Positions 1 through 62,069 are shown, counted from the stretch's first letter. The stretch: 64,000 nt of DNA from Mageeibacillus sp. UBA1212 (GCA_002309655.1 DBXM01000051.1:2856-66855); one strand, 5' to 3'. A program made the numbers and translations. Notes: generated by a model not told the origin, from the letters alone.

Positions 1-601
1 GGTACAACAGCATGCCCTCGAAAATGAGCACCAGCCCCATTCCGCCGCTGTCGACAACGCCGGCCTCCTTAAGGCAAGGAAGCAGCTCGGGCGTGTTGAC
101 AAGGGAAACCTTGAGGCGGGAAACGTACATCCCGAGCAGCGTCTCGAACGAACAGTTGCGCGGAAGCTGAGGTCTGATGAACTCAATGCCCTCCCTCGCG
201 ACCGTCAGAATGGTGCCCTCTTTCGGCGACCTGCAGCCCGCGTAGGCCTGCCTGTAGGCGTGAACCAGCGCCGCCGCCATCGAAGCCGCCGACATAGTCT
301 CGTACCTTCTGAGACTGCGCGCGAAGCCGTCGAAGAAATTCGACACGATAACGCCCGAATTTCCGCGCGCGTTAATAATCATTCCGTCCGCCATCGCGCG
401 AAGATACGCGTTGAGCTTCTGCTGCCCCTCCGCGTCGCTTATGCCGTGCTGAACGGTCAGTCTCATGTTCGTGCCGGTGTCCCCGTCGGGAACCGGGAAA
501 ACGTTCAGGTCGTTGACCTTCTGTTCGTTCTCGCTTATTTTCCGTAGCGCGCCGCGCATCATTTTCGAGAACGCGGTGCCGTCAATGCGATATGTTGCCA
601 T
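1..601 (-). CDS. fakA: Fatty acid kinase subunit A (DAK2-domain protein, YloV-like), N-terminal part. ATG at 601; the C-terminus runs past the window start.
   Basis: Minus-strand translation from 601 gives MATYRIDGTAFSKMMRGALRKISENEQKVNDLNVFPVPDGDTGTNM..., the DAK2 signature VFPVPDGDTGTNM. It lies directly downstream of a DegV gene, as FakA does with FakB. Confidence 0.7.
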   Translation of the reverse strand, partial: MATYRIDGTAFSKMMRGALRKISENEQKVNDLNVFPVPDGDTGTNMRLTVQHGISDAEGQQKLNAYLRAMADGMIINARGNSGVIVSNFFDGFARSLRRYETMSAASMAAALVHAYRQAYAGCRSPKEGTILTVAREGIEFIRPQLPRNCSFETLLGMYVSRLKVSLVNTPELLPCLKEAGVVDSGGMGLVLIFEGMLLY

Positions 602-650
602 CTGTTACCCTGATTCTTAAAGTCTCTGTAAGATTGTCCCGGTTTAAACT

Positions 651-1574
651 TCAGTTCCCGAGGCGTGCAAAAATCTCGCCCTCTTCCTTGAGGTCGTCGG
701 AAATCTTCTTGCCGGTGTAGTAGCAGGCCATGATTCCGGGGCCCGAGTTGGAGCCGCTGCTTCTGAAAATGTCGGTGTAGTAAATCTCCTTCGGGTTAAA
801 GCGTTCCTTAATCATCGCCAGGAACTTCTCGGCCTGGGGCCTTCTCGCGGAGCTCGCGACTATCATGACCTGGTTCTCGGGGTCGATCGCGGTCTCGCCG
901 ATGTAGTCCAGAAGGATCCTGTAGGCGCTCTTCTCGCCCTTGATCTTGGTGAGAACGGTGGTCATGCCGTCCTTCGAAAAATCGCCGCAGGGCTTGATTC
1001 CGATAAGGGTTCCCATGAACGCCTTCGAGTTCGAAATTCTGCCTTTTTTAGCGGAAAACTGAAGGTCGTCGTGCCAGCCGGCCTGGTGGATCGACCACTT
1101 GATTTCCTCGCAGTACGCGAACGTTTCCTCAACGCCGAGACCCTCTTCGCGCTTGACCGCAGCAAGAACCGCGAGCAGACCGCCGCCGGTCGCAAACTTG
1201 CGCGAATCGACGACGAGAATCTTGACGTCCGGATACTTCTCTTTCAGATCGTCTCTCGCGTTGCAGGCGATGTCGTAGGTGCAGCTCATTTTCGAGCTCA
1301 TGCAGAAATAGAGGACGTCCTCGCCTTTCGCGGCGTGCTCCTCAAATACGGCTGTAACTTCCGGAAGCGTCGGCGGCGCCGTCTTGTAGCCCTCGGGGTT
1401 CTTTTTAAGCTTCGCGTAGAACTCCTCGCAGGTCTCCACGTCCCACTCCATCTTGGAGACGATCTCCTGACCGTCGGGATACGTTACGTGACCCTGAATA
1501 TATTCGATTCCGAATCTCTCCCTGATCTCTGCCGAGAGATCGCACGTGATGTCGATAACAATCTTAAAACTCAT
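651..1574 (-). CDS. DegV-family fatty-acid-binding protein (FakB-like).
   Basis: 307 aa. N-terminal IVIDITCDL and overall DegV fold signature. Adjacent to fakA. Confidence 0.8.
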   Translation of the reverse strand: MSFKIVIDITCDLSAEIRERFGIEYIQGHVTYPDGQEIVSKMEWDVETCEEFYAKLKKNPEGYKTAPPTLPEVTAVFEEHAAKGEDVLYFCMSSKMSCTYDIACNARDDLKEKYPDVKILVVDSRKFATGGGLLAVLAAVKREEGLGVEETFAYCEEIKWSIHQAGWHDDLQFSAKKGRISNSKAFMGTLIGIKPCGDFSKDGMTTVLTKIKGEKSAYRILLDYIGETAIDPENQVMIVASSARRPQAEKFLAMIKERFNPKEIYYTDIFRSSGSNSGPGIMACYYTGKKISDDLKEEGEIFARLGN

Positions 1575-1596
1575 TTCAAAACCTCACTTCATTAGT

Positions 1597-2532
1597 TTAT
1601 AAATCCTCATTCCCGAGTATCTTTCTTATCGCGCTCTCCACTTTTTCCGGGTCCGCGATAAACGCCTCAGCGTGCCCCGCTCCGTCCACCACAACGAGGT
1701 CCTTCTTTTCAGACGCGAGCGCCTTTAAATGCTCCTCCGACGCCGCGACGGGAACGACCACGTCCGCCCCTCCGTGAATGAAAAGCGCCGGAACCGTGCA
1801 CTTCGCGAGCTTTTCGTTAATTTGCTCCTTCCCGGTGTCGAACCCGCCGAAAAGGATTCCCGAAAACCTCGACACCTCGGCGAGCAGCCGGCCGAACGCC
1901 CCGATTTTGTGCATTCCGTTCTTGATGGTATCGCAGCCGGTTCTGTAGCCGCACTCGAGGGCCATGAACTTCACCTCGGGGTACTCCGCGAGCCTGTCGG
2001 CTGCAAGACAAATCGTGGCGGCGCCCATCGATACGCCGAAGAGCGCCACTTCCTTTCCGCCGGTTCTTGCGCGAAGCCAGTCGAGCCAGCTAAGAAGGTC
2101 GTTCTTCTCGCGGGTTCCGAAGGAAATGATCCTGCCGCCGCTGTCGAAGTGGGCTCGCTGCGACACGAGAAGCACGTTGTAGCCGAGGTTGCGGAACACC
2201 TTAAAAGCCGCGTGAACGTTGTTAAAAGGCGTCGCCCTGTAGCCGTGGAGCGCGATAACGGTCTTTTCGTTCCCGAAATCGTAGTACCTCGCGCCGAGGG
2301 TCAGTCCGTCGTAGGATTTGATCCTGACCGGCTCGTAGGGAATCGATTTGATCTCTTTCAGCGTGGCGAGCAGCCTGTCCGCGTAGGGGGCGTAGTGCGT
2401 TTCCGAAAGATTTAGCGATTCGAGCGGAATCTCCTTCCCGCGGTGGTACGTTCTGAAAAAAGCAAAAATGATCAGACCCGCAAGAGGCGCCACAAGAAGC
2501 ACCGCAGCCGCGATAATCCAGTACATTTTCAC
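1597..2532 (-). CDS. Membrane-anchored alpha/beta hydrolase (esterase/lipase/thioesterase-like).
   Basis: N-terminal TM helix and GVSMGA nucleophile-elbow motif. Alpha/beta hydrolase length and late-H pattern. Confidence 0.6.
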   Translation of the reverse strand: MKMYWIIAAAVLLVAPLAGLIIFAFFRTYHRGKEIPLESLNLSETHYAPYADRLLATLKEIKSIPYEPVRIKSYDGLTLGARYYDFGNEKTVIALHGYRATPFNNVHAAFKVFRNLGYNVLLVSQRAHFDSGGRIISFGTREKNDLLSWLDWLRARTGGKEVALFGVSMGAATICLAADRLAEYPEVKFMALECGYRTGCDTIKNGMHKIGAFGRLLAEVSRFSGILFGGFDTGKEQINEKLAKCTVPALFIHGGADVVVPVAASEEHLKALASEKKDLVVVDGAGHAEAFIADPEKVESAIRKILGNEDL

Positions 2533-41896: not shown

Positions 41897-43114
41897 TCAC
41901 TCATCGTACTTGCCGTACATCGTGGACGGCGGCAGCGTCGCGCCCTCTCCGTTCTCGTCCGGGAACGGCGTCAGGTCGTCGTGCTCGTAGAGCTTCCTGT
42001 CCTCTTCCTTCGAAAAGTCCGGCACCCTGAAGTTCTCGCCGTGCTTGAGGCAGCTCCGCCACGCCAGGATCGCGGTCGCCGACATCGCCACGCCCTTATA
42101 CACGTCAAAGAAAGGCGTTTTGCCGTCGCGGAAGTAGTCGATCATATTCTGAACGATCCAGTAGTCGCCTCCGCCGTGGCCTGCGCTGAGCGCTTTTTCC
42201 GCCTTTTCGCCCCAATAGGAAATGTCAGGCGTCAGGTACTGCACGCATTCCTGAACGTCCTCCGGCTTCGTGTAATGCTCGTAGAAAAGCCTGACCTTGC
42301 CGTCGGTGTAGCCTCCCTGCTCGACAGACCCCAGATCGCCGACGATCCTGTAGCGGCTGTAGTCGGAAGCCATCGCGGTGCAGCCCGTGAAAACTGCCGT
42401 CATTCCGTTGTCCATCTCGCAGAACATCTGCGCGGTCCCGTCGTCGTTCGGCCTGTAGTCCCTGTACTGCTCAAGCCTCTTCGAGTGGACCGCGCGCGCG
42501 GAGACGTACTTCGGCATGGAGTTTGTCATATACATAAGCGGTCCCATCGCGTGCGTAATGTAATAAGTGCGCGGCATCCACGCTCTCCAGTGCATCGGGA
42601 ACGGCGTCAGGTACTTCATGTCCTCGAACGTTCCCGAGTGGTTGTACTCGCCCTGCGCATAGAGGAACGTCCCGAGCGTGCCGCCGTCGATAATCCGCTT
42701 CATCTCGAGGTTCGGCGTCATGAACGGATAATTCTCCGCGATCATGTACTTTCTGCCTGTCCGCTCAACGCACCTGACGAGCTCAACGCAGAGCTTGAGC
42801 GTAGCCGCCGAGGTGCACTCACTGACTACGTCCATTCCGTTCTCCATCGCTTTGATTGCGAATTCCGCGTGCTGGTGGAAGAAATTGCACAGAAAAACGG
42901 CGTTCATTCCGGCGCTCTTCCCGTACTCCAGGAACGAGTCGAAGTCTTTGAAAAGCTCCGCCCCTTCGAGCCCCTTCACGCCGTCGAGTTTGTCGGCCTG
43001 CCTGTCGCAAACCGCCACGATTTTAATGACGTCCGGATCTTCCGCGGCGATAAGATTGATGTAGCTGTTGCCGCGCCACGCTCCGAAAATACCGAGTTTT
43101 ATAGTTTCAGCCAT
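41897..43114 (-). CDS. Gfo/Idh/MocA-family oxidoreductase, with the start moved to the ATG at 43114.
   Basis: MAETIKLGIFGAWRG Rossmann N-terminus preceded by SD ggaggag. The track ORF carries 21 extra N-terminal residues with no SD. Confidence 0.7.
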   Translation of the reverse strand: MAETIKLGIFGAWRGNSYINLIAAEDPDVIKIVAVCDRQADKLDGVKGLEGAELFKDFDSFLEYGKSAGMNAVFLCNFFHQHAEFAIKAMENGMDVVSECTSAATLKLCVELVRCVERTGRKYMIAENYPFMTPNLEMKRIIDGGTLGTFLYAQGEYNHSGTFEDMKYLTPFPMHWRAWMPRTYYITHAMGPLMYMTNSMPKYVSARAVHSKRLEQYRDYRPNDDGTAQMFCEMDNGMTAVFTGCTAMASDYSRYRIVGDLGSVEQGGYTDGKVRLFYEHYTKPEDVQECVQYLTPDISYWGEKAEKALSAGHGGGDYWIVQNMIDYFRDGKTPFFDVYKGVAMSATAILAWRSCLKHGENFRVPDFSKEEDRKLYEHDDLTPFPDENGEGATLPPSTMYGKYDE

Positions 43115-43215
43115 AATTCTCCTCCCGCAAAACAGCCGGTTTCCGCCCTTTATTGAACGTCCGGTCGTGCCCCGCAAAAAACATGAATGTGTGTTTTATC
43201 CGTTTTAGCTCCTGC

Positions 43216-43764
43216 TTATCTGTTTACCATCTTCTTGGAATCCAAGTAATCATTAAAATATTTTTCTAATAAATCAATAAAAGCAGAGCTTCGATAATCA
43301 GCCATTTTGCACAAATGAGTTCCAAATGCATCATATTTATCTATCATTGCAAGCCATCTCAATTCTTTGCCTCTTTCAGGGTCATCATCCATTGTGAAAA
43401 GAATGAACGACCCATCACCATACTTAAGCTGTACGCCTTGTCCATAAGGTCGATCCGTATATCCGTAAGGGTATGTATAAGGATAAAAGAAATCAACTTC
43501 TGAAAGCTCGTTTAAGAATTCACTCCTCAAACTATCGTCAAGAGTGTACACAATTTCCAGACAATCCATATCTAAATTGACTTCTATACCCGGGGTTTCT
43601 CCTTTTTGGCTCTTTATCGGTAATTGCTCATAATAACGAACAAAACTCACCTCCACGATATCGTTCATCAACTCATCAGAATCAAAAAAGTACATCGGAG
43701 GGTCGACCGCACAAGAAACCATAAATAAACAAAGTATTACAAGACAGAATAAACAACGTTTCAT
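43216..43764 (-). CDS. Small lipoprotein immediately downstream of the RHS toxin. Candidate cognate immunity protein.
   Basis: Lipobox LFMVSC. AT-rich codon usage like the RHS gene. 49-nt gap after the toxin stop. Confidence 0.45.
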   Translation of the reverse strand: MKRCLFCLVILCLFMVSCAVDPPMYFFDSDELMNDIVEVSFVRYYEQLPIKSQKGETPGIEVNLDMDCLEIVYTLDDSLRSEFLNELSEVDFFYPYTYPYGYTDRPYGQGVQLKYGDGSFILFTMDDDPERGKELRWLAMIDKYDAFGTHLCKMADYRSSAFIDLLEKYFNDYLDSKKMVNR

Positions 43765-43813
43765 TAATTTGCTCCCTTCATTCCAAAAGTTTTTGAGCTA
43801 ATCAAAATGCTAA

Positions 43814-46800
43814 TCAGTAGGATTCATCCCACCAAAAAAAAGCAGGAAAAATAAAATAGCTCAATCCATAATACCACCAAGCTCTGGCAATGACATCTGA
43901 AGACTGTCCTCTCTTGGCATTTCCAAGAATATCAGCTAGAGCCTCCCAAGGCTCTTCGTATAATCTGTATTTCCTGTCAAGTTTGCAAGAAGAAGGAATT
44001 GCGACTGTTATTAAATATGTTATAATCCCTGACATCATCAATTGCCAGTTATGACCACGCTCATGCCTAAGGTCGTTCTCATCATCTCCATCAGCTAACA
44101 GAATTATGCCAAAAGATCCTGATCTTTCGCCCTCCCCTATTCGGAATACTGGAACTCCTTTGTAAAACGACACTTTTCTTGATTTCAAAACATCGCTGAC
44201 ATCTGAATTAAACGGGTTATATTCAATCTCCTTAAGATCCGTCTTAATATCTTCATCAAAGCAAGACATAATACACATCCCAGCATATGATAAAACAGAT
44301 GCAGCAATTTGAACAGCAGACCCTCCAATTGGTGTAAAAGCCAAAAGAAGTGCAATAACCAAAATAGCATAATGACCATTAATATCTACGCAATTCACCG
44401 GATCATTCCTGCAATATGTGTAAAGATTACACCCAAGCGGGCCTTCCCCGATGTTCAGCTGTGAGTCAGCGTTAATGAATCTTCCTAAATAAGGGTCGTA
44501 ATACCGGCTCTTAAGGTAATAGAATCCTGTTTCGTTGTCGTAATAGTATCCCCTGTATCTTACCGGGTTGATGTAACCAATGCTTGTAGTGTCGGTTGTA
44601 ACGTCTACTCCGCTGCCGTTCTTGATTGAGATTAAAGAGCCCCATGTGTCGTAGGTATAGGCTGCAACTACTGCCCCAGCGCTGTTAATTATGTGCGTTA
44701 TATCGCCCTGTATGTTGCGGATGTATCGGTAATATGATGGTGCGCCGCTGTTTTGAGAATATGCAAAGCCACAAATTCTGCCCGCAGCATCATAGTCGAA
44801 AACCATCTCGTATGAGCCGTCTGCCGCCCATTCGGATTTAAGCGTATCACCCACCCAAAAGTAATTGATCCGTTTTGAAACGTTATCGTTTGAAACAAGC
44901 GTTTTTCTTGTTCTCAGTCCGTCTGCATCGTAAAGATAGCTTTGCGCATAAGCGGCTCCGTTTGGTGTTACAGTTGCAAGCTTGTTTCCCCGGCTCCAGG
45001 TCATTGCATAGCTTGTTTTCCCCATATAGGTCAACGGATTTCCGACAGTATCGTAAGAGTAATATGACCCGCCAATATATGTTGACAAGATGTCCTTGTC
45101 CGTCGCGTTATAACCGTAAATCGGGATTGAGAGTAGCGTTGCGGTCCCTAAAAGCGATGATGTGCCTATGTTGGGACTGTACGAGAATATCATTTTGGCA
45201 AGCAGATTGCCGCCGTTATCGTATGTATATCTGATAGTATAGCCGCTTCCGTTATTAAGTTTTTTATTGTCTTCACGAATTAACTGACCAAGTGCATCAT
45301 ACTCATATTTATTGGTCAAAATCCCGTTATCCGATATCGTTTTTATCTTGCCGTTATCGTAGTAAGTATATGTCAGCGCCGGAACTGATGACAGCGAGCA
45401 AGTCTCGGAGGATACGAGATATGTCTCATTGGTCAAATGGTACGTGTGACCGTTGTATACAGTATCCTTCTCCTTAACAACGTATGAATACGACTTGTTC
45501 AAAGAAGAAGAGGGGTTGTCATGAGCGAATGATGTAATTCGTCCAATGTCATCAAACGTAAGTGTTTTTGTTCCGGTAACGCCTTCTCTGACCGACATTT
45601 TGCTTGCGGCATCAGATTCAGTCCGCGAATCATACTCCCTGGTTGTAAGAGCTGTCGTAAAAAACTCTGTTTCTATATTCCCGCTTTGCCCAACGTCATA
45701 TTGATAAAAAACCTTGTTTCCGTCACTTGATAAAACGCATTTCAGTCTGCCGGTCGGATCATAGCTGTACTGTTTTGTGTTTACGCGAGCAGAATCGGAA
45801 CGGTCAACAGACTTAACCACATTTCCGTTATTGTCGTAATACCATACAAAGGTTGCATTGCTGATGTTAGCGTTTGAATCGAAAGCGACATACGTCAGGC
45901 GTCCCAAAGAATCATATCCAAAGTACTTTGTCTGACCGTTTCCATAATGAATTTCAGATAACTGTCCGAATGTTCCGCCATAGGAATAACCGGCTACGGT
46001 CCGGATACTGCTGCCATTTGCATCCAGAATCGCGAAAGACGTCATATTGCCTGCATTATTCGTCCCGAAAGAATATGAAAACCCGTTGTGTGAAATACCG
46101 GTTGAATACGGATTGTATGCTATCCCGAAAGACGAACCGCCTTCTGACTCGCCGATCAATCTGCCATATGAGTCATACGTAAAAGATGTCGCACCCCCGC
46201 TACCGTCCGTAACAGAAAGCAGATCACCCGTCGCACTTGAATATGAGTAAGTTATGTCGTTTCCCGACATATCTGTTTCTCTGTGTAAAAACCTTCCGTC
46301 AGACGTGTAGTCGTAAACTTTGTGAGAGATACAGTTGATACCTGAAAGTGTTGCCGATTCGATAATCTTACCGTGCGCGTTGTACGCATATAGGTCGTAA
46401 GTATCAACCGATAATGAACTGTTTCCGCCCGGTGCAAATGACTCATCTGTGCGAATCACCTGTGTCGGGACAAGAGTACTGTATGAATAAAATGTAGATG
46501 TTTCGTTTCCGGCAGCGTCGGTGTGGTAAACTGCCGAGATTCTGTCCGGAAGAGTATTCTCATAAGCATATTCAGTTTCCGCCCCTGAGAAACCTCTCTC
46601 AAACTGAATTCTTCCAAAACTGTCGTAAACGTACTGGCTTCTGTCTGAATAATCCCCAAAACTGTCTATATACTCTGCCGTTAAACCGCCAAAGCACACA
46701 TCAGTGTAGTTGTAGTCGTTGACAAGGCTTATCGTAACGTCGCTGCTGAACCCTTCGATTTTGATAATTACACTTACAAACTGCCATCCCTCTGTGGCGG

Positions 46801-49800
46801 CAGAGAACAAAAGTTCCTCATCGTGTGAACTGCTGCTGCTAAAGTGAATACCGATGCCGAATTTACCGGAACTGACTGCTTTTCCTTTGCCGAACCCGCT
46901 CACCACCAGGTATCCTCCGTCGGATACCGAAGATGGCAAAACCCGGCTCAAGCTTCTTTGTGAACTGATGCTGCCGGGTATAACAACGCCTCTTATCAGG
47001 TCATTTTCCGAAACTGTCGGAGAAAAAGAACCGTTTACCGTCCATTCAGTTGTTCCGTTATAAAAGGAACTGTCGGGAATCTGATTTGTAGGTCTTGCAA
47101 GCGCCCCCTCTGTCAGCGACACGAGGTCGAAATACAGATTACCGCTTAAGTTTTTAACACCAATAAGGATGCTTACGCTTCCTTCAGTGGCAATCGATGG
47201 GATCTCGAATGTATACTGAATCGAACTTAAATTGGAATAAGCCTTTTGAGAAGATACCATTTTAACATTTGGCTGTCCGTAAAAAGTGTACTTTATCCCA
47301 AACACTAATTCTCCGGACCCGGTTAGTTCGGATGTATCAACAGCGGCAGTGAGAGTGTATGTTTTTCCGGTATCAGCCGACGGAACCGGATACGACGCGT
47401 ACACCTCTGTATTTGGAAAGTTCGCAATATTCTGAGAAAGTTTAAAACAAGTATCGCCGTATTTAAATCCAACGAAATGACCTGCCGTAGTATTCGATAC
47501 CAAGTCTCCGCTGCCAAACAATGAGAAGTAACTCCACTCGTCTGAAAACGAAGTAAAATCCTCCACAAGATTTCCGTCGGTCATTACTGCGGACGTCTGT
47601 CCGGACAGCAGATTCATGGCGCCGACGGTGCCTCCCTCATACTCGCTTCCGGACACGTTTCCTAAACTGTCAAAAACAGATGTAGTCCTGCCGTTTCGAT
47701 CGAAATAAATATACTCAGTATATGATGTTGAGAAATTATATGCGTTATAGCATGTCGTTGGATTCCCAAGCGAAAAAAGAGCCATATCGCACGGTTCATA
47801 GACAGAGGATTCCACAAACACATATTTGGTAACAATTGTTGTTGCACACACACCCGTGGCATTCGGCGAGCTTCGTGTGAGGAAAACATATTCTCTGTCA
47901 TTATTCTCGGAAGATGATTTCCTGTATCCAAAACGATTCAGAGCCCCGTTAGAATTATATGAAATATTAGTATGCTCACCGGTTGGAAGGCTGATTTTGT
48001 TTAAATACTCACCCGAATAGAAGAACGAAACTGCGCGATCCGGGCAGTCATCGTTCTTAATGCTATTCAGCCGCGATTGCGCATATACAAAAGAAATCTG
48101 CACTCCGTTGCCGTCAACAACGCCCGTAATTTTAGGAGTTGACCCGGAATAACTGATCAGGAAACTGTCCCCATACTCGTTTTCAAACTCTTCAAGATAA
48201 CCTGATGCATTAAAACATGCTTTTTTACCGTCATGATAATCAATTATTCGAGTTAAATCATTATACTCGTAAATAGGGTATTCTTCACATTTGTATATAT
48301 GGCCGCTTGAATGAATGTAGCTGTGTTTTGCTCCTGTCCCGTCAGTAAGAACATAATAAGAGTAGGAGCTGTTATTAATATCAGTAACGGTCTCGGCTTT
48401 CATTGTTTGTATAACAGATGGTCTCCAACCGTTGCCGTAATAAAGATCTGTCTCAGTGTTTTTAAATGCGGTGCTGTACACCAGATCAATTGAAACAGGC
48501 AGTATTTCACCTGTTGTCGATACAACCGGGTGTATAAATACGACATCCCCGTTGATGTCTTTAATATATGCTGTGCCTGAGCCGTCAATGGAAATTGAGT
48601 GAGTCGACTGATAGCTGTTTAACCCCGAGTTGTCGGAAAAAGTGATCTGAACAGCAGTCATCGGCACTAAGTAGTGCCCAGGAAGAGAACCCGAAGGAGC
48701 TTCCGTAGTCAGGGCAAGTCCATAGCTGTTACCTCTTACATAATCCTGAATTATGGATGTAATATCAAGTGAAAAGCTTATAGATGAAGGCAGATATCCG
48801 ACTGCCTGAAGCCTTGCAGAGTCAGTTAAACCGCCATAGGAACCCGGAACCGACGGAGTAGTATTTCCAAGATACGCATCATCCGGATCCCAATTGCTGT
48901 TGATTTTTTCAGCCCTGACAAATGTATCAAAGGGGATAGCAGGCATTATATAGGCGTTGACGGCAAGTGAAGCCGCCCCGATTGTCACCCCGGCAGGCAA
49001 GCCGGTTAAAAAATCAGGTTTGAATTTCAGATATGTTTGCACGCCGTTTCCGATAGCCAAACCGTAACCGCGATTGTTTCCCTCTATGTAAACCGCCTCA
49101 TAGGCATCATCTTCATCAGGATAAACAATGACTATTGTCGGATCAATTCTTACAGGGAATTCCCTGTTCTCCTCATTTATCCACTCCGCATCGGCAATGA
49201 CAGTGACAAGAAAACCGTCTCCGGTATCGTCCAGAGTCACAGAAAGACAATCCGAGCATTCATCCTTGGAATCTCTCATATAATCCGCGGTCAGTTTGAA
49301 AACTGAGTTTCCGGACTCATTGTAAATCAGAATACAGTTGTCTTTTAATTCGGCATTGCAGTTATTTACCGAAAGAACAAACGAATATACGTACTGTTCG
49401 AAACCACCCTCGCTTATGACAATGTTTTCTTTAATTTCATAAGGCTTTATCGTGTATTCAAGAGATGCAGAGGGGGAAGTATTAGAACTTGCGAACAAAT
49501 TATCGTAAACAACTGTTCCGTTCTCGCAGGGGTTTTCGGTCAGCAGTTCATCATCAGTGTGAGTAACCTGATCATACCGTGCCTCCGAAGGTTCATCTGA
49601 CGTGTTAAGCGGAGAAAGAGAAAGCGAAACACCGTTGTAATCCAAATCTATCAATTCATTGCCGTCTTCTGAAGAAGTAGCAAAAGAAATCGTATACGGG
49701 GCGTCGAGTGTTATGAACCGTCCATCCCGCTCGTGAAGCGTAAGGTTAATCTTCCTCCAGACTCCTTCTCCGGTCTTGTAATTGACAGGACGGCCGAATA

Positions 49801-50188
49801 CTAAACGGGTATAGTTTCCGTTTTTCAGAGCGTAATCTCTTGTAAATCCATTGGTGAAATCGGTTGTCTGATATCTGACGTCGGAGCGCTTGTAGGGATC
49901 AACATCCTCGACAGTCGCAGGGTGTCCGAGTTTTTCAAGCAAAAGCTGCTCATATTCCGAGGACTTGTCGTTTTTTACTATTCCGCCTGTTGCAAACTCA
50001 TCTCCGGGAGTTGCATAGTATTCCGATGATGTGTGATAAGACTGTTTTGGAAGATTTGCAGCATGTTCTTCGCCGTATACGTTTGCAAAAACATTCGTCG
50101 GGATCAACGTTGCAAATATAGCGAAGACGAGCACAATCGCAACAGCCTTGAATTCTATGTTGAAATGCCGAATACTATTCATGACCAA
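43814..50188 (-). CDS. Secreted RHS/YD-repeat polymorphic toxin (2124 aa) whose variable C-terminal domain carries an HExxH motif.
   Basis: Signal peptide. Many YD repeats (YDALGQL, YTYDNGGNL, YLYDADGLRTRK, FDYDAAGRI). RHS core end YYDPYLGRFINADS. About 240-aa C-terminal tail with LRHERGHNWQ and hydrophobic helices. SD ggaggattgg upstream of the ATG. Confidence 0.85.
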   Translation of the reverse strand: MVMNSIRHFNIEFKAVAIVLVFAIFATLIPTNVFANVYGEEHAANLPKQSYHTSSEYYATPGDEFATGGIVKNDKSSEYEQLLLEKLGHPATVEDVDPYKRSDVRYQTTDFTNGFTRDYALKNGNYTRLVFGRPVNYKTGEGVWRKINLTLHERDGRFITLDAPYTISFATSSEDGNELIDLDYNGVSLSLSPLNTSDEPSEARYDQVTHTDDELLTENPCENGTVVYDNLFASSNTSPSASLEYTIKPYEIKENIVISEGGFEQYVYSFVLSVNNCNAELKDNCILIYNESGNSVFKLTADYMRDSKDECSDCLSVTLDDTGDGFLVTVIADAEWINEENREFPVRIDPTIVIVYPDEDDAYEAVYIEGNNRGYGLAIGNGVQTYLKFKPDFLTGLPAGVTIGAASLAVNAYIMPAIPFDTFVRAEKINSNWDPDDAYLGNTTPSVPGSYGGLTDSARLQAVGYLPSSISFSLDITSIIQDYVRGNSYGLALTTEAPSGSLPGHYLVPMTAVQITFSDNSGLNSYQSTHSISIDGSGTAYIKDINGDVVFIHPVVSTTGEILPVSIDLVYSTAFKNTETDLYYGNGWRPSVIQTMKAETVTDINNSSYSYYVLTDGTGAKHSYIHSSGHIYKCEEYPIYEYNDLTRIIDYHDGKKACFNASGYLEEFENEYGDSFLISYSGSTPKITGVVDGNGVQISFVYAQSRLNSIKNDDCPDRAVSFFYSGEYLNKISLPTGEHTNISYNSNGALNRFGYRKSSSENNDREYVFLTRSSPNATGVCATTIVTKYVFVESSVYEPCDMALFSLGNPTTCYNAYNFSTSYTEYIYFDRNGRTTSVFDSLGNVSGSEYEGGTVGAMNLLSGQTSAVMTDGNLVEDFTSFSDEWSYFSLFGSGDLVSNTTAGHFVGFKYGDTCFKLSQNIANFPNTEVYASYPVPSADTGKTYTLTAAVDTSELTGSGELVFGIKYTFYGQPNVKMVSSQKAYSNLSSIQYTFEIPSIATEGSVSILIGVKNLSGNLYFDLVSLTEGALARPTNQIPDSSFYNGTTEWTVNGSFSPTVSENDLIRGVVIPGSISSQRSLSRVLPSSVSDGGYLVVSGFGKGKAVSSGKFGIGIHFSSSSSHDEELLFSAATEGWQFVSVIIKIEGFSSDVTISLVNDYNYTDVCFGGLTAEYIDSFGDYSDRSQYVYDSFGRIQFERGFSGAETEYAYENTLPDRISAVYHTDAAGNETSTFYSYSTLVPTQVIRTDESFAPGGNSSLSVDTYDLYAYNAHGKIIESATLSGINCISHKVYDYTSDGRFLHRETDMSGNDITYSYSSATGDLLSVTDGSGGATSFTYDSYGRLIGESEGGSSFGIAYNPYSTGISHNGFSYSFGTNNAGNMTSFAILDANGSSIRTVAGYSYGGTFGQLSEIHYGNGQTKYFGYDSLGRLTYVAFDSNANISNATFVWYYDNNGNVVKSVDRSDSARVNTKQYSYDPTGRLKCVLSSDGNKVFYQYDVGQSGNIETEFFTTALTTREYDSRTESDAASKMSVREGVTGTKTLTFDDIGRITSFAHDNPSSSLNKSYSYVVKEKDTVYNGHTYHLTNETYLVSSETCSLSSVPALTYTYYDNGKIKTISDNGILTNKYEYDALGQLIREDNKKLNNGSGYTIRYTYDNGGNLLAKMIFSYSPNIGTSSLLGTATLLSIPIYGYNATDKDILSTYIGGSYYSYDTVGNPLTYMGKTSYAMTWSRGNKLATVTPNGAAYAQSYLYDADGLRTRKTLVSNDNVSKRINYFWVGDTLKSEWAADGSYEMVFDYDAAGRICGFAYSQNSGAPSYYRYIRNIQGDITHIINSAGAVVAAYTYDTWGSLISIKNGSGVDVTTDTTSIGYINPVRYRGYYYDNETGFYYLKSRYYDPYLGRFINADSQLNIGEGPLGCNLYTYCRNDPVNCVDINGHYAILVIALLLAFTPIGGSAVQIAASVLSYAGMCIMSCFDEDIKTDLKEIEYNPFNSDVSDVLKSRKVSFYKGVPVFRIGEGERSGSFGIILLADGDDENDLRHERGHNWQLMMSGIITYLITVAIPSSCKLDRKYRLYEEPWEALADILGNAKRGQSSDVIARAWWYYGLSYFIFPAFFWWDESY

Positions 50189-50531
50189 TCCTCCGAATTA
50201 AACCGATGCAGGTAATGCATCTTCTCTCTTTTGTGCTTTGATTATACATCGTTTCTCACATTCAAATCAATTGCTTTTTAAAGAACGATGTAAAGTACGA
50301 TTATCGTTTGGCTTGACTACAGTCAGTCATTTTGCATTGTGATTAGGAAAAACTCAGAGACCCACTGACGTTACGGTTGGAGGCGAAGATAATATAGGCA
50401 AAAAAACGTTAAGGCCGGTTTTTCTACTGTCCGTGCTCGCAGAGAGCATGATAATACTAAGAATGTCTTAAAAGAAATAACCTGAACGCCTTGAAATTTC
50501 CGCTAAAATTGCTTAAAACCGAAAAAAGCAT

Positions 50532-50560
50532 TTCACGCGCGCGGAAAAAAGTGGTATAAT
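50532..50560 (+). promoter_or_regulatory. Promoter with an extended -10 for the glpA-like operon.
   Basis: TTCACG-17 nt-TGgTATAAT (TATAAT at 50555-50560). SD aaacggaggt sits before the ATG at 50594. Confidence 0.5.
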
Positions 50561-50593
50561 GACAGCACCAAATCAAACGGAGGTCTTTCCCGA

Positions 50594-51982
50594 ATGTATG
50601 ATGTGATTATAATCGGCGCGGGCGTTGTCGGAGGAATGATAGCGAGGGAACTGTCGCGGTTCAACGTGTCGGTATTGATTCTCGAAAAAGAAAACGACGT
50701 CGCGCGCGGCGCAACGGGCGCGAACAGCGGTATCGTTCACGCCGGCTTTGACGCGGCAACAGGCAGTCTGAAGGCACATCTCAACGTCCTCGGATGTAAA
50801 ATGATGAAGGACGTGGCCGCGGAACTCGGCGTAAAATACGTCAACAACGGCTCGCTCGTTATCGCCTTCGGGCCCGAACAGGACGAACACGTGAAAACGC
50901 TTTACGCGCGCGGGATCGCGAACGGCGTCGAGGGGCTTAAAATCCTTGACTCAAAAGAGCTTCACGAACTGGAGCCCAACGTGGCCCCGGACGCGACTTC
51001 CGCTCTGTTCGCCCCTTCGGCGGGAATAATCTGCCCCTACAGCCTTGCGATTGCGGCGGTGGGCAGCGCAATGGACAACGGATGCGAATTAAAGCTCCGC
51101 AGTGAAGTGACAGGAATCGTTCGCGAAGACGGCTTATATAAGGTGACGTTGGCCGGCGGCGCGATTGAAGAGGCGCGGTTTGTCGTGAACTGCGCGGGCG
51201 TCTTTTCCGACAAGGTAGCAGCGTTCGCCGGGAAGTGCGATTTCACCGTGCATCCGAGAAGCGGCGAGTATCTGCTTCTGGACAGGGAGTGCGGCGAGCT
51301 TGTGAGCCGCACGATTTTCAGGGTTCCCACTAAAATGGGCAAGGGTATTCTCGTGTCCCCCACCGCCCACGGGAATCTCATTCTCGGCCCCACCTCCACC
51401 GACATCGAAGACAAGGAAGACAAGCGCACCACCCGCGAAGGACTCGACATGGTGGCGAAGGGCGCGGCTTCAAGCGTCAGCGGGCTTCCTTTTAGAAGCG
51501 TCATCACCTCGTTCACGGGCCTCCGCTCGGTGGGCTCCACAGGCGATTTCATCATTAATGAGAGCGACGGCTTCGTGAACTGCGCGGGCATCGAGTCACC
51601 GGGTCTCAGCGCCTCCCCCGCCATCGCGGTCTACGTCAGGAACCTTCTTGCCGGCGCGGGACTCGTTCTCGAGCCCAAGGCGGACTACGTTCCCGGAAGG
51701 CGCGTTTACAAGGCGGATGAAAAGCTCTACACTCACATCGTGTGCCGCTGCGAAACGATCAGCGAGGGCGAGATAGTTTCCGCGATTCACACCAACCCGG
51801 GTGCCACCGACATCGACGGCGTCAAAAAACGCACCAGAAGCGGTATGGGCAGGTGCCAGGGCGGGTTCTGCCAGCCCTTCGTCGCTGAAATTCTCGCGCG
51901 GGAGCTCGGCAGGAGTCTTCTCGAAATTACCAAATCCGGCCCCGGATCGGACATTCTCGCCGGCAGGGTCAAGGAGGTGTGA
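50594..51982 (+). CDS. FAD-dependent oxidoreductase (GlpA/LhgO-like) with a C-terminal BFD-like [2Fe-2S] domain.
   Basis: VIIIGAGVVGGMIAREL dinucleotide-binding N-terminus. C-terminal CRCETISEGEI...GRCQGGFC cysteine pattern. Confidence 0.75.
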   Translation: MYDVIIIGAGVVGGMIARELSRFNVSVLILEKENDVARGATGANSGIVHAGFDAATGSLKAHLNVLGCKMMKDVAAELGVKYVNNGSLVIAFGPEQDEHVKTLYARGIANGVEGLKILDSKELHELEPNVAPDATSALFAPSAGIICPYSLAIAAVGSAMDNGCELKLRSEVTGIVREDGLYKVTLAGGAIEEARFVVNCAGVFSDKVAAFAGKCDFTVHPRSGEYLLLDRECGELVSRTIFRVPTKMGKGILVSPTAHGNLILGPTSTDIEDKEDKRTTREGLDMVAKGAASSVSGLPFRSVITSFTGLRSVGSTGDFIINESDGFVNCAGIESPGLSASPAIAVYVRNLLAGAGLVLEPKADYVPGRRVYKADEKLYTHIVCRCETISEGEIVSAIHTNPGATDIDGVKKRTRSGMGRCQGGFCQPFVAEILARELGRSLLEITKSGPGSDILAGRVKEV

Positions 51983-58567: not shown

Positions 58568-58798
58568 ATGGCAGTCAACTATATGAAACTGTGGCATTTG
58601 CTTCTGGACAGAGGCCTGAAAAAGGTCGATCTTGAACGCATGTCCGGCATTTCACACTACACAACAAAAAGAATGACCAGAAACCAGAACATCCCTACCG
58701 ACGATCTCGGCCGTATCTGTCTTGCGCTCGAATGCAAAGTGGAAGATATTATTGAGTTTATACCCGACGAATCGTTTATTGCGGTACAAAACAACTGA
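58568..58798 (+). CDS. XRE-family helix-turn-helix transcriptional regulator (76 aa).
   Basis: SD aagaggtgg. HTH pattern [35 protein letters not shown]. Confidence 0.65.
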
Positions 58799-58820
58799 CA
58801 AACCGGAGGACGAACCGTTC

Positions 58821-59672
58821 ATGAAAACATCAATCAGATTTTTTGAAGATACCGCGGTAAGAGCCGTCTGGGACGAAGAGAGTTCCAAATGGTGGTTTTG
58901 CGCCGCGGACATCGCGGAAGCGCTGACCAAAAGCAGGAATCCGCGCGTATATTGGGCAACCGTGAAACGAAGAAATCCTCAGTTGATTGCAATTTGCAAA
59001 CAACTGAAACTCAGAGCTTCCGACGGCAAAAAATACCTCACGGACGTTGTCGACGAAAGCGGTTTGAATACCGTTATCGCCCTGATTCCGAGCAAAAAGA
59101 GCGAAGTATTCTCAAAGTGGATGAAGAACCTTGAAACTTCTCTGGACGAGAAAAGCAGGCTGAAAGCGTACGAACTGTTCGACAGCGGCTTCATTGACTA
59201 CATCGAGGTTGGAACGGTCAAAGGGCTTCAGCAGATTCACGCGTATATTTTCGGCGGCCTTTACGATTTTGCCGGACAGATCCGGAAGCTGAACATAGCC
59301 AAGGGCGGCTTTGCGTTTGCGCCCGCAATGTATCTTGCCGAAAACCTTAAAACAATCGAGCGCATGCCCGGGAACACCTTCGAGGAAATCGTTGCAAAAT
59401 ACGTCGAAATGAACGTCGCCCACCCTTTCATGGAAGGCAACGGCAGAAGCACAAGGATATGGCTTGATCTTATACTTAAGAAGAATCTCAATCTGTGCGT
59501 CGACTGGAGCAAAGTCAACAAAAAAGACTACCTGGCCGCAATGCAGCGAAGCGTTGTCAACACGGACGCCATCACGGACCTTTTTCGCAACGCCCTTACC
59601 GGCGACATCGACAACCGCGAAATTATAATGAAAGGCATCGATTATTCGTATTACTACGAAGCGGAAGAATAA
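58821..59672 (+). CDS. Bro-N (KilA-N-like) domain fused to a Fic (AMPylation) domain.
   Basis: N-terminal Bro-N pattern [29 protein letters not shown]...ESGLNTVI...SEVFSKWM. C-terminal canonical Fic motif [14 protein letters not shown] ggagga. Confidence 0.75.
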
Positions 59673-59762: not shown

Positions 59763-62069
59763 ATGGGGAACTCTCGCAAGCAGCCGAATATTCTTAAAAC
59801 CGCGATCGTGTTCCTGCTCGCAGCCGCGATTGTGCTGCTCGTTGTAATTATGATCAAATCTGGAATCGACAAGTCTCGGGTTGAACCCGATCCCACCGGC
59901 GATATTATGGCGGGAACAGATTCCGCGTACGAAACAGGAAGTGTCGACGTAACCGGGGCACCCGAGGAGACAAACCCCGCGGAGACAGATCAGGGAGACA
60001 GTGAGACCCCGACTCCGTTCACGCCGGCAAACACTCCGGCACCTGCGGAGACCGCGACACCGGCAAATGTAACCGCTTCGCCCACGCCCACTCCTGCGCC
60101 GACAAACACCCCCACGCCGACTCCCACTCCGACGCCTACTCACACGCCGACTCCGACCCCCACGCCTACGCCCACGCCAACATCGGCCCAGCCTACAGGC
60201 AGTTCCGGAGTCACCAACGCGGAGCTTCTGGCGATGGAGCGCAAAAATCCTTCCAAGTCTTCAGGCGGTCTGATGATCTCCGAGGTGATGACATCCAACA
60301 CTCAGTTCGCGCCCCAGGGCGGCGAGTACTTCGACTGGGTCGAGCTGTACAACCCCGGCCCCGACACAGTGCGTCTTTCCGACTACACCCTCACCGACAG
60401 GATGAAAAAGACCGACAAGTTCCGGCTTCCCGACAGAACGCTGGCTCCCGGCGGCTACTATCTCATCTTCTGCTCCGGCGAAGGTACCGCCAACCGGGCG
60501 TCGTTTAAGCTCTCCTCCGACGGCGAGTCCGTCTACCTCTACAAGAACGGCGAGCTTCAGGACAGCGTCGACGTTCCGCTTCTCATCCAGAACACAACCT
60601 ACGCGAGATACGGTGAATCATGGGTCTATTCGGTTATTCCGACTCCCGAAAGCGCCAACGCGGCCGGCAGGAATTCCCTTCTCGCCCCGCCCGTTTCCAA
60701 CGTTAAAAGCGGCTGCTACACCGACCCGGTCACGATCACGCTTTCCGGTGCGGGAACGGTCTACTACACGACCGACGGCACCGCCCCGACGACCTCCTCG
60801 AAAGTCGCGAACGGTTCCATTACCGTCACGAAACCCCAGTCCATCCGCGCCATCTGCGTCAGCGACGGCGAGCAGAGTCCGGAGGCATATTTTACCTATA
60901 TTGTGGACAAAACGGCCACCACGCTCCCGATCGTGAACATCGCGGCCGACCTTGAATCCCTCTCCGCTCCGGGAGGCGTTTTCAGCGATCAGCACCAGCC
61001 CTACAAAGGCACCGAGGCGCCGATCCTCCTTACGCTCGTCGAAAACGGCGAGGTGAAATTCTCCGTTCCCTGCGGATTCAAGCTCCACGGCAACGACAGC
61101 CGCTACGGCGCGAAGCAGAATTTCCGACTGCGATTTAAATCCTCTTACGGCGCCAGCAAGCTTCGCTACAAGGTCTTTGAAAACAGGGAGATCTACGAAT
61201 TCGACTCGCTTCTTTTAAAGAGCGGCAGCGAGGACTACACCAGAACGATAATGCGCGACGAGCTGACCACCTCGCTTGTGGACGGAGCGACTTCCCTTTA
61301 CGTCCAGGCGTACAGACCTGTCACGCTTTACATCGACGGCGAGTACTGGGGTATTTACTACCTCCGCGAGCGTCTCGACGAAGACTACGTCGAGGACCAC
61401 ACAGGCTGGGATTCCTCAACGGTTGACGTTATAAAGAGCCTCGGCGAACTTGACGCCGGCTCGATGACCGACTTTTACGACGTCAGGCGCTTCTGCAATT
61501 CGCACGACATGACAGTCGCCGAAAACTACGAATACGCCTGCTCGCGCATCGACATCGACAACGTCATCGACTGGTACATCTGCCGCTCGTACTTCTCCGA
61601 CCACGACATCAGCAATATAAGAATGTTCCGCTCGCCCGACGGCGACAACAAGTGGCACTACATGTTCTACGACCTCGACTGGAGCCTCGACCCGCATTTC
61701 GCGACTGAGGGCTCGTTCACGTGGATCGTCGAGCACACCGAGGACAGCTTCTTCCAGCGACTGATGCTCAACGCTACGTTCCGCGATAAGCTGCTCCGCC
61801 GCCTTGCCGAGCTCAGGAAGACCATCCTGAACGAGGAACACATTCTCGCGGCGATCGACCACATTGCCGACATCATCCGGCCCGAGATAGAACGCGACAG
61901 AGTGCGCTGGGGCATCCGCCAGGGCAAGTGGCAGGAAAACCTGGAAGAACTCAAGGACTTCTTCAGGAACGGCAGCCGCGACACCGCCTACATGAACGAC
62001 ATCAAGAGCTTCTTCGGGCTCTCCGCCTCGCAGCTGATCTCGCAGTACGGCTTCGAGAACGTGAAATGA
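59763..62069 (+). CDS. Membrane-anchored CotH-family protein with a (TP)n linker and a lamin-tail domain.
   Basis: N-terminal TM, TPTPTP linker, LTD block LMISEVMTSN...DWVELYNPG and CotH core (WGIYYLRERLDEDYV, YFSDHDI). Confidence 0.7.
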   Translation: MGNSRKQPNILKTAIVFLLAAAIVLLVVIMIKSGIDKSRVEPDPTGDIMAGTDSAYETGSVDVTGAPEETNPAETDQGDSETPTPFTPANTPAPAETATPANVTASPTPTPAPTNTPTPTPTPTPTHTPTPTPTPTPTPTSAQPTGSSGVTNAELLAMERKNPSKSSGGLMISEVMTSNTQFAPQGGEYFDWVELYNPGPDTVRLSDYTLTDRMKKTDKFRLPDRTLAPGGYYLIFCSGEGTANRASFKLSSDGESVYLYKNGELQDSVDVPLLIQNTTYARYGESWVYSVIPTPESANAAGRNSLLAPPVSNVKSGCYTDPVTITLSGAGTVYYTTDGTAPTTSSKVANGSITVTKPQSIRAICVSDGEQSPEAYFTYIVDKTATTLPIVNIAADLESLSAPGGVFSDQHQPYKGTEAPILLTLVENGEVKFSVPCGFKLHGNDSRYGAKQNFRLRFKSSYGASKLRYKVFENREIYEFDSLLLKSGSEDYTRTIMRDELTTSLVDGATSLYVQAYRPVTLYIDGEYWGIYYLRERLDEDYVEDHTGWDSSTVDVIKSLGELDAGSMTDFYDVRRFCNSHDMTVAENYEYACSRIDIDNVIDWYICRSYFSDHDISNIRMFRSPDGDNKWHYMFYDLDWSLDPHFATEGSFTWIVEHTEDSFFQRLMLNATFRDKLLRRLAELRKTILNEEHILAAIDHIADIIRPEIERDRVRWGIRQGKWQENLEELKDFFRNGSRDTAYMNDIKSFFGLSASQLISQYGFENVK

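Follow-up and report, generated by a model that had tools for sequence, protein, structure and literature searches.

The characterised tips of WapA are nucleases, and the immunity proteins that go with them are cytoplasmic. Tips of another kind, the metallopeptidases Tox-MPTase1-5, HopH1/M91 and PVC-type, were catalogued among polymorphic toxins in 2012 (Zhang et al., PMC3482391), and Rhs-M91 effectors have been tested experimentally (PMC13556075). The effector Tpe1/VgrG2b, one of the VgrG-metallopeptidase effectors that have likewise been tested, acts in the periplasm; its immunity protein (Tpi1/PA0261) is a lipoprotein or is anchored by a transmembrane (TM) segment, and its suspected substrates are lipoprotein tethers (PMC6899460). 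The subject here is an RHS gene with an HExxH-containing C-terminal domain, the tip, and the lipoprotein gene next to it. Both lie on a stretch of 64,000 nucleotides (nt) from Mageeibacillus sp. UBA1212 (GCA_002309655.1, DBXM01000051.1:2856-66855), which is referred to as a whole as the window. The initial annotation of the window called an HExxH tip unusual for an RHS protein, which is an overstatement in view of the two reports on metallopeptidase tips just cited.

The two genes very probably form a polymorphic toxin–immunity cassette. The reading as a whole, in which this cassette is Sec-dependent and WapA-like and its gluzincin-like tip acts at the outer face of a membrane, is reasonably likely.

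Allelic states of the locus

Four states of the locus are found between the same two flanking genes in near-identical strains. In the window, the RHS gene is accompanied by the lipoprotein gene. The RHS body is the same, at 97% protein identity, in two sister strains (L051 and L052), where another tip and another downstream gene follow it. The nucleotide identity between L051 and the window is 97.7% from window position 51198 to 44392, 21 nt before the tip, and the two are unrelated beyond that point. P0268, the protein of L051, is 97% identical up to NLYTYC and then continues into a TM-rich region, PT-HINT and an LHH nuclease. The gene downstream of it, which encodes 202 amino acids (aa), differs from the lipoprotein, has no Pfam match and is presumably the immunity gene of the HINT-LHH tip. 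The swapping of tip and immunity gene anticipated in the initial annotation is therefore seen in L051 and L052, where the tip and the downstream gene are exchanged together. These alleles (L051:6001-13470 and its counterpart in L052) occupy the same chromosomal site as window 43178-50593, and L052 has an additional open reading frame (ORF) of 128 aa that is glycine-zipper-like.

In the third state (L049), the lipoprotein is kept at 95.5% identity and no RHS ORF is present. The junction joins window positions ~43828 and ~50214, and the sequence follows the window up to a point some 15 nt inside the RHS ORF's 3' end. The fourth state (L050) has neither gene, and the site is occupied by intergenic scraps and two other small genes. 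At two further loci, close homologues of the lipoprotein stand directly after the last 20–25 codons of this tip: in L045 beside decayed pieces of the same RHS gene, and in L048 in an array downstream of another RHS gene, where the copy adjoins an Imm-NTF2-2 gene. The lipoprotein thus occurs without an intact toxin in L045, L048 and L049, an independence that was originally considered contrary to an immunity role. Because a stub of the tip is retained upstream of these copies, they are read as orphan immunity genes, and the interpretation stands. Tip and immunity gene move together, and immunity outlives the toxin; both findings are typical of polymorphic toxin systems.

Other small AT-rich genes are present at the hotspot in the sister strains: L049:8251-8934 (-), L050:4032-4511 (-), L050:4632-5354 (-) and L051:13982-14461 (+). 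A family of 227/159 aa among them has a faint DUF4304-like match (E=0.056), and a family of 240/159 aa has none. These small genes may be further orphan immunity genes. L049 also has a gene for a group II intron reverse transcriptase (RVT_1 and GIIM) at 409-1710 (-), between TMEM164 and hydrolase genes; it is not called at the matching place in L043, whose locus is identical to that of the window.

The boundaries of the island were taken directly from the strain comparison, and its composition sets it apart. The fraction of G and C (GC) is 0.427 in the island and 0.558 in the rest of the window; it ranges from 0.38 to 0.47 across 43000-50500 and from 0.54 to 0.63 in the flanks, and the block of 43.0-50.5 kb is the sole strongly AT-rich one of the 64 kb. 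At third codon positions (GC3), the values are 0.43 for the RHS gene, 0.31 for the tip, 0.34 for the lipoprotein and 0.71–0.81 for five flanking genes. The genes around the island are of ordinary metabolism (an FGGY kinase, GH123, GFO/IDH/MocA and DAO/BFD oxidoreductases, the latter called glycerol-3-phosphate dehydrogenase in one source, and a Pyr_redox_2 enzyme), and their annotation includes no integrase or transposase. The initial annotation had described an AT-rich island at about 43.2–50.5 kb with shifted codon usage and no flanking integrase or transposase, and these values agree with it on each point. Names in the 90%-identity cluster of the flanking oxidoreductase point to an uncultured Clostridia bacterium as the host. 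The cassette has been acquired horizontally by an uncultured gut or rumen Clostridia bacterium, and its site is a strain-variable hotspot. An RHS polymorphic toxin on an island of foreign composition is thus supported by profile matches, by tip swapping and by GC and GC3.

The lipoprotein gene and its relatives

The 182-aa lipoprotein gene lies downstream of the RHS gene at the distance first reported, a gap of exactly 49 nt. Its product begins with MKRCLFCLVILCLFMVS-C18, and the lipobox cysteine does not vary in two alignments, of 16 and 26 sequences. An AlphaFold model based on an alignment of database proteins reaches a predicted local distance difference test (pLDDT) score of 80. Profiles of known immunity families (Pfam Imm families, SUKH, etc.) gave no match.

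Downstream genes were counted at the 35 loci (L001 included) that have at least 500 nt of sequence beyond the tip. At 27 of them, the next gene encodes a lipoprotein of one of two families, A at 10 loci and B at 17. It mostly starts between -45 and +31 nt from the tip stop codon, and farther away at two loci. The encoded proteins are 135–195 aa long and have a lipoprotein signal, replaced at L021 by a TM anchor. Two further loci have other lipoprotein-like ORFs. A rule-based lipobox is present in 25 of the 35 first-downstream ORFs. Family A shows the pattern C-[VA]-x-D-P-x-x-Y-Y-F-D... (10 loci and the window) and family B the pattern ...YYSDxxNY...PIV... (17 loci). After removal of the signal peptides, the two families are unrelated (hhalign probability 0.1%). 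A single merged family, suggested by a first iterative search that drew in even a helix-turn-helix protein, was rejected as driven by the signal peptide, and the stripped set resolved into the two families. The idea of a strain-specific orphan, which came from a single-sequence search that found 5 proteins, was also rejected after locus-based and profile searches had revealed the limit of its sensitivity.

The two lipoprotein families track two subtypes of the tip. Threonine at tip position 122 is found in 11/11 A-linked tips versus 1/14 B-linked tips, as is leucine at position 131; proline at position 128 is found in 9/11 versus 0/14. The glutamate helix of the tip reads PWET[M/L] in most A-linked members and PWE[I/V]T in most B-linked ones. 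All columns that discriminate between A and B lie from residue 114 to the C-terminus, near the predicted active-site helices. Since a cognate pair predicts such tracking of two tip subtypes by two unrelated families, the lipoprotein is regarded as the cognate immunity protein. A neighbour-joining tree of the tips does not cleanly separate the immunity families, and the location of the per-column signal in the C-terminal half suggests mosaic tips. The role of immunity gene first proposed for the lipoprotein is supported by its adjacency to the tip at most loci, by the subtype co-variation and by its joint exchange with the tip. Three consecutive lipoprotein genes follow the tip at one locus of Clostridia (L018:8590-10244), the first two belonging to family B and the third to family A; this looks like an immunity array.

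The tip domain

The YYDP motif of the RHS core is followed by 216 residues, fewer than the 240 or so first estimated, and the tip proper, after the Rhs core, comprises 185 of them. The previously noticed LRHERGHNWQ is confirmed at residues 2040–2049. A database search returned 104 homologues of the tip with 38–65% identity, nearly all of them short ORFs that start in or just after the end of the RHS core (NLYAYCxNNPVxxxDPxG); they represent either orphan tip cassettes or the C-termini of RHS proteins. A profile of the tip matches 266 clusters of 50% identity at E<1e-30 and 842 at E<1e-10, the weaker matches being inflated by the RHS-core end that the profile includes. Among ten profile matches of unusual length that were scanned, seven have RHS repeats, three are uninformative, and none has a non-RHS delivery domain.

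A scan of one genome per species yielded 40 loci, 39 of which are analysable after the removal of a 38-residue fragment match. Full-length RHS genes of ~1100–2150 codons and short orphan cassettes are mixed among them. The bearers are mostly Clostridia (Christensenellaceae, Acutalibacteraceae, Oscillospiraceae, Lachnospiraceae and Pumilibacter muris), joined by Acholeplasmataceae, Anaeroplasmataceae, other "Mollicutes" and two Endomicrobia. Members are found in a cultured isolate, Pumilibacter muris CLA-AA-M08 (L025), and in the named assemblies Clostridium sp. CAG:448 and Acholeplasma sp. OttesenSCG-928-E16. In the two metagenome-assembled genomes of Endomicrobia (L024 and L034), the leader of the family tip is longer and TM-like, and no lipoprotein gene was detected downstream of the tip; the next gene in L034 encodes another RHS protein, of 2345 aa. 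A 1-Mb contig (L001:943-7798) has, downstream of the gene for a 2300-aa CBM96/RHS protein, an orphan tip cassette with a family A lipoprotein; between the two are genes for serine recombinases, a resolvase, a transposase of the ISL3 type and a protein kinase.

Eight residues of the tip, H103, E104, G106, H107, Q110, S127, E143 and A146, do not vary in an alignment of 32 sequences, at least 90% of which also keep P141 and D147. Among the 39 tips derived from the loci, which are 34–59% identical, HExGHxxQ is present in 38 and the motif P-W/Q-E-x-x-A-D/S in 35. The HExxH motif to which the initial annotation drew attention is thus conserved in homologues and is not a chance motif. No sequence match to the tip exists in Pfam, NCBIfam or the PDB; for the whole RHS protein, its tip and the lipoprotein, the Pfam and NCBIfam scans returned RHS models only. 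When 32 members were compared with all of Pfam-A at E<=10, none matched Tox-MPTase1-5, Peptidase_M91 (HopH1/NleD) or DUF4157 (PVC-type). Matches of single homologues among these 32 to HExxH families (Reprolysin_5, 0.032; M50, 0.18; Zn_peptidase, 0.19) are sub-threshold one-offs and were dismissed as motif noise. A profile search of the PDB hit teneurin alone, via the RHS-core end, and a Foldseek search of the tip model against the PDB gave no match. The VgrG2b tip (PDB 6h56) has neither sequence homology nor clear fold homology with the tip. Membership of the lipocone superfamily was rejected, as lipocone toxins are all-helical enzymes acting on lipid head groups, without HExxH and β-sheet. 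As far as sequence comparison can tell, the tip is a member of a widespread unnamed family absent from Pfam and NCBIfam.

With the 32-sequence alignment as input, AlphaFold2 models the tip at a pLDDT of 92.2 and a predicted template modelling score (pTM) of 0.89. The model begins with a hydrophobic hairpin of helices 2–12 (11 aa) and 14–36 (23 aa), followed by two short helices, strands 67–70, 73–80 and 90–94, the HExxH helix 98–114, a short hydrophobic helix 116–129 (14 aa), the glutamate helix 141–149 and two C-terminal helices. In this model, the layout is that of a minimal gluzincin, and by analogy with gluzincins E143 is a candidate third zinc ligand. The tip is likely to be a zincin-type metal hydrolase. 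Its three hydrophobic segments, which were noted from the outset, reach the usual Kyte-Doolittle threshold with 19-residue means of 2.27 (residues 2–20), 1.61 (20–38) and 1.62 (111–129); a fourth segment, at residues 164–180, is rich in aromatic residues.

Site of action and alternative readings

In the proposed mechanism, the 2122-aa protein would be exported via Sec, as its signal-like N-terminus suggests, with the YD-repeat shell enclosing the 185-aa tip. The tip would be freed at the aspartyl-protease motif of the Rhs core, presumably by autocleavage, and delivered to a neighbouring cell. As a putative minimal gluzincin-like zinc hydrolase, made of three β-strands, the HExGHxxQ helix and the glutamate helix and wrapped in hydrophobic helices, it would associate with the outer leaflet or surface of the target cytoplasmic membrane. 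Its zinc-dependent cleavage would most likely hit a surface-exposed protein, a lipoprotein tether or some other amide or ester bond close to the membrane. The lipid-anchored 182-aa protein would sit on the same face of the membrane in the producer and its kin and neutralise the tip by binding its C-terminal half. Zinc binding, catalysis, the nature of the substrate and neutralisation by direct binding are all putative in this scheme.

Both immunity families are located in the envelope by a lipid or TM anchor, which, with the analogy to Tpe1/VgrG2b, argues for extracytoplasmic action; on these grounds, action of the tip at the outer membrane face is slightly favoured. Full-length toxin and lipoprotein pairs occur in genomes of Acholeplasmataceae and Anaeroplasmataceae (L004 and L008), families that have no cell wall. 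Because intact pairs occur in these wall-less lineages, peptidoglycan is unlikely as a target, and the membrane is favoured. Insertion of the tip into the membrane is plausible, and, going by the model, a monotopic or interfacial association would be the most economical reading.

Several points weigh against the proposed mechanism. Six of the 35 loci have no downstream lipoprotein gene, and the counts behind the A/B co-variation are phylogenetically non-independent. The closeness of H103, H107 and E143 to one another is presumed. At the end of the Rhs core, the protein of the window reads VDINGH where its relatives have DPxGH, with Asp and Gly alone retained, and autocleavage is therefore an assumption. 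The hydrophobic segments are at or near the TM threshold, residues 2–20 excepted. The predicted helix 116–129, with its ~14 residues, is probably too short to span a bilayer, and it would also be non-spanning if HExxH and E143 form one site. The hairpin is missing in one clade (L036, L038, L039, L040 and L041), which has an amphipathic HWPQW... segment instead. A hydrophobic helix directly follows DPxG in 21 of the 38 other tips at the same loci (L001-L042), a set that includes a few unrecognised members of the tip family, and a hydrophobic leader also precedes the nuclease tip of the swapped allele. The hairpin may accordingly be an entry device for a tip acting in the cytoplasm.

The hairpin is modular, since one clade is without it and others have a longer version: L024, L029 and L034 have a longer TM-like region in its position, and the core from residue ~38 on is conserved in hairpin-less and long-leader members alike. 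Such a leader may be a general delivery, entry or anchoring device of Sec-dependent RHS toxins. In the 21 other tips, the leading helices are strongly hydrophobic and often glycine-zipper-like.

Among the alternatives, most weight goes, in view of these leaders, to a zinc peptidase that acts in the cytoplasm; the hairpin would then be a translocation leader of a generic kind, and the lipoprotein would catch the tip at the surface before entry. The HINT-LHH nuclease, which must reach DNA, has a leader of the same kind, and the modularity of the leader within the tip family points the same way. Two unrelated immunity families are, however, both lipid-anchored outside the cell, and the hairpin is modelled as part of the domain at a pLDDT of 92–98. 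Polymorphic toxins that act in the cytoplasm normally have cytoplasmic immunity proteins, as these must protect the cytoplasm of the producer too. A cytoplasmic site of action is thus considered unlikely.

With four hydrophobic or aromatic segments and no significant peptidase match, the tip could also be a membrane-permeabilising toxin, pore-forming or depolarising, in which HExxH...E is structural or metal-stabilising only. Pore formers delivered by Rhs proteins exist, for example Tse5. The invariant H, E, H, Q and E at 34–59% identity are nevertheless hard to explain without chemistry, and the clade that is without the hairpin retains the core. The usual immunity protein against a pore former is an integral membrane protein, which also counts against this explanation. 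Permeabilisation is quite unlikely.

That the tip hydrolyses a membrane component other than protein, for example a lipid head group, a lipid-linked glycan carrier or the anchor of lipoteichoic acid, is very unlikely. On a β-β-β-α-α scaffold, HExxH combined with a Glu downstream is in the overwhelming majority of cases the mark of a peptidase, and VgrG2b, functionally the nearest analogue, is counted among the gluzincins. In favour of such a substrate, the hydrophobic, membrane-proximal architecture fits, the tip lies outside every peptidase family scanned, and polymorphic toxins are known to include tips that target lipids and have their immunity proteins in the envelope (PMC12419801).

That the tail is no toxin at all and serves as a membrane anchor or a self-processing (releasing) peptidase of a surface RHS protein, with the lipoprotein as an unrelated neighbour, agrees with its hydrophobic C-terminal segments and with the mostly releasing role of PVC-type HExxHxxQ-E peptidases (PMC3482391) but is hardly credible, given that the tip stands after the Rhs core cleavage motif, exactly in the toxin position, has its place taken by a nuclease tip in an allele of 97% identity and circulates as orphan cassettes, that a co-varying lipoprotein is next at 27/35 loci and that lipoprotein-only strains exist.

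Within the preferred reading of an outer-face toxin, a more specific proposal can be advanced tentatively. The tip might represent an undescribed class of miniature membrane-embedded gluzincin toxin with an HtpX-like layout, delivered by the shell to the outer leaflet in monoderm or wall-less gut bacteria, where it would shave surface lipoproteins or ectodomains. The two lipoprotein families would then block two subtypes of the same active-site region.

Features of the island and neighbouring observations

The longest mechanical ORF of the RHS gene (43814..50188, minus strand) begins with TTG at 50188. This codon lies within the spacer of GGAGGATTGGTCATG, after a GGAGGA Shine-Dalgarno sequence 6 nt upstream of the ATG at 50182. 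Because the TTG falls inside the Shine-Dalgarno spacer, the ATG is taken as the real start. The gene is called at 2122 aa in the metagenome contigs L043 and L044, which have an identical locus. One intact RHS gene had been described, correctly, at a length of 2124 aa, which has to be shortened along with the change of start codon. As read from the translation, the N-terminus has an n-region that contains K, a hydrophobic core of 15 residues and, at VFA, a cleavage-type site.

The shell is matched by RHS_repeat (PF05593, E=6.3e-19, first match at residues 1319–1347), TIGR01643 (E=5e-13) and NF041261 (residues 1398–1673). Rhs_assc_core (TIGR03696, E=4.3e-20) is matched over its full length of 1–76 at residues 1846–1939 in the 2124-aa numbering (window 44372-44653). 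The canonical YYDP motif reported for the core is present as YYDPYLGRFINAD at residues 1896–1908. The positions of all features are collected in Table 1.

Table 1. Features of the variable island; positions are counted from the first nucleotide of the window.
Feature	Position	Strand	Basis or remark
AT-rich variable island	43178..50593	.	between GFO/IDH/MocA (GH109-like) gene and DAO/BFD oxidoreductase gene; composition and sister-strain comparison
Candidate immunity lipoprotein, 182 aa, family A	43216..43764	-	ORF, translation, homologues
Signal peptide and lipobox FMVS-C18 of lipoprotein	43711-43764	-	translation
RHS/YD-repeat polymorphic toxin gene	43814..50182	-	2122 aa and stop, ATG start; ORF, translation, profile matches
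C-terminal toxin domain (tip), 185 aa, HExGHxxQ...PWExxAD family	43817..44371	-	homologues, profile search, AlphaFold model
Glu143 of PWEALAD motif, candidate third zinc ligand	43943..43945	-	predicted helix 141–149
HERGH (HExxH) motif, tip residues 103–107	44051..44065	-	on predicted helix 98–114
N-terminal hydrophobic helical hairpin, tip residues 1–38	44258..44371	-	Kyte-Doolittle and model
Profile-supported YD/RHS repeat shell with Rhs-associated core	44372..46234	-	includes YYDPYLGRFINAD and NLYTYCRNDPVNCVDINGH
Recombination breakpoint of tip cassettes	44385..44400	-	L051 alignment; protein break at NLYTYC(R/G)NDPVN
Putative Sec-type signal peptide MNSIRHFNIEFKAVAIVLVFAIFATLIPTNVFA/NV	50081..50182	-	reading of translation
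Promoter-like site TTGATT-18-TATAAT upstream of RHS gene	50241..50270	-	consensus scan, 10/12 matches; consensus match alone

Elsewhere in the window, a second, milder AT-rich patch (GC 0.47–0.49 at 58–60 kb) contains a gene for a Bro-N and Fic/DOC protein at 58722-59672 (+), which adjoins the gene of a CotH/LTD surface protein at 59763-62069.

Significance and comparison with known systems

RHS toxins of Gram-positive bacteria and gut anaerobes, whose delivery is injection-free, are far less studied than those delivered by type VI secretion systems (T6SS). The tip family comprises hundreds of 50%-identity clusters in Clostridia, Christensenellaceae, Acholeplasmataceae and Anaeroplasmataceae, with two ready sets of immunity partners. 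If the tip is indeed a zinc hydrolase acting at the outer face, in wall-less bacteria included, a surface target common to these organisms would be expected, and the cassette would offer a tractable system for the delivery of hydrophobic cargo by an RHS shell. The locus itself, with its four allelic states, is a clean natural example of a toxin–immunity hotspot. The members in a cultured isolate and in named assemblies make experiments feasible.

In general organisation, the cassette resembles the WapA-type RHS toxins of Bacillus subtilis and Streptococcus suis (PMC12704120), with which it shares an N-terminal signal peptide (putative in the cassette), the YD-repeat shell, the variable C-terminal toxin, the adjacent immunity gene and the location away from any dedicated secretion system. 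It differs from WapA in its putative metallo-hydrolase tip and its extracellular lipoprotein immunity; a Pfam scan of the RHS protein detected no cell-wall-binding repeats.

With the metallopeptidase tips of Zhang et al., the tip has in common a zincin-like domain at the RHS C-terminus, and the PVC-type metallopeptidase of that catalogue combines an HExxHxxQ-E signature with three strands and three helices, as the tip does (PMC3482391). The catalogued families differ in that no tip member matches their Pfam models at E<=10, and in the additional hydrophobic helices of the tip. For Tox-MPTase1-5, no immunity protein is listed by Zhang et al. (PMC3482391), whereas the tip family has two dedicated lipoprotein families.

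Tpe1-Tpi1 and VgrG2b-PA0261 are type VI metallopeptidase effector–immunity pairs (PMC6899460) to which the tip has no detectable sequence similarity. They use the T6SS spike, whereas the tip, found in bacteria that are monoderm or wall-less, is carried by a putatively Sec-exported RHS shell, has extra hydrophobic helices and is paired with immunity families unrelated to theirs in sequence. Tse5 of Pseudomonas aeruginosa is similar in that a hydrophobic, membrane-targeted fragment is held in an Rhs cocoon and passed straight to the membrane (PMC10684867); it is delivered by the T6SS and has no catalytic motif, unlike the tip with its invariant HExGHxxQ...E. The resemblance to membrane gluzincins of the M48/HtpX type is one of layout only, as the tip is much smaller and has no match to the Peptidase_M48 profile.

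The locus thus probably belongs to a known kind, the RHS polymorphic toxins with metallopeptidase tips. What is new is a tip family outside existing models, with its hydrophobic helices, its two dedicated lipoprotein immunity families and its spread in gut Clostridia and wall-less Bacilli.

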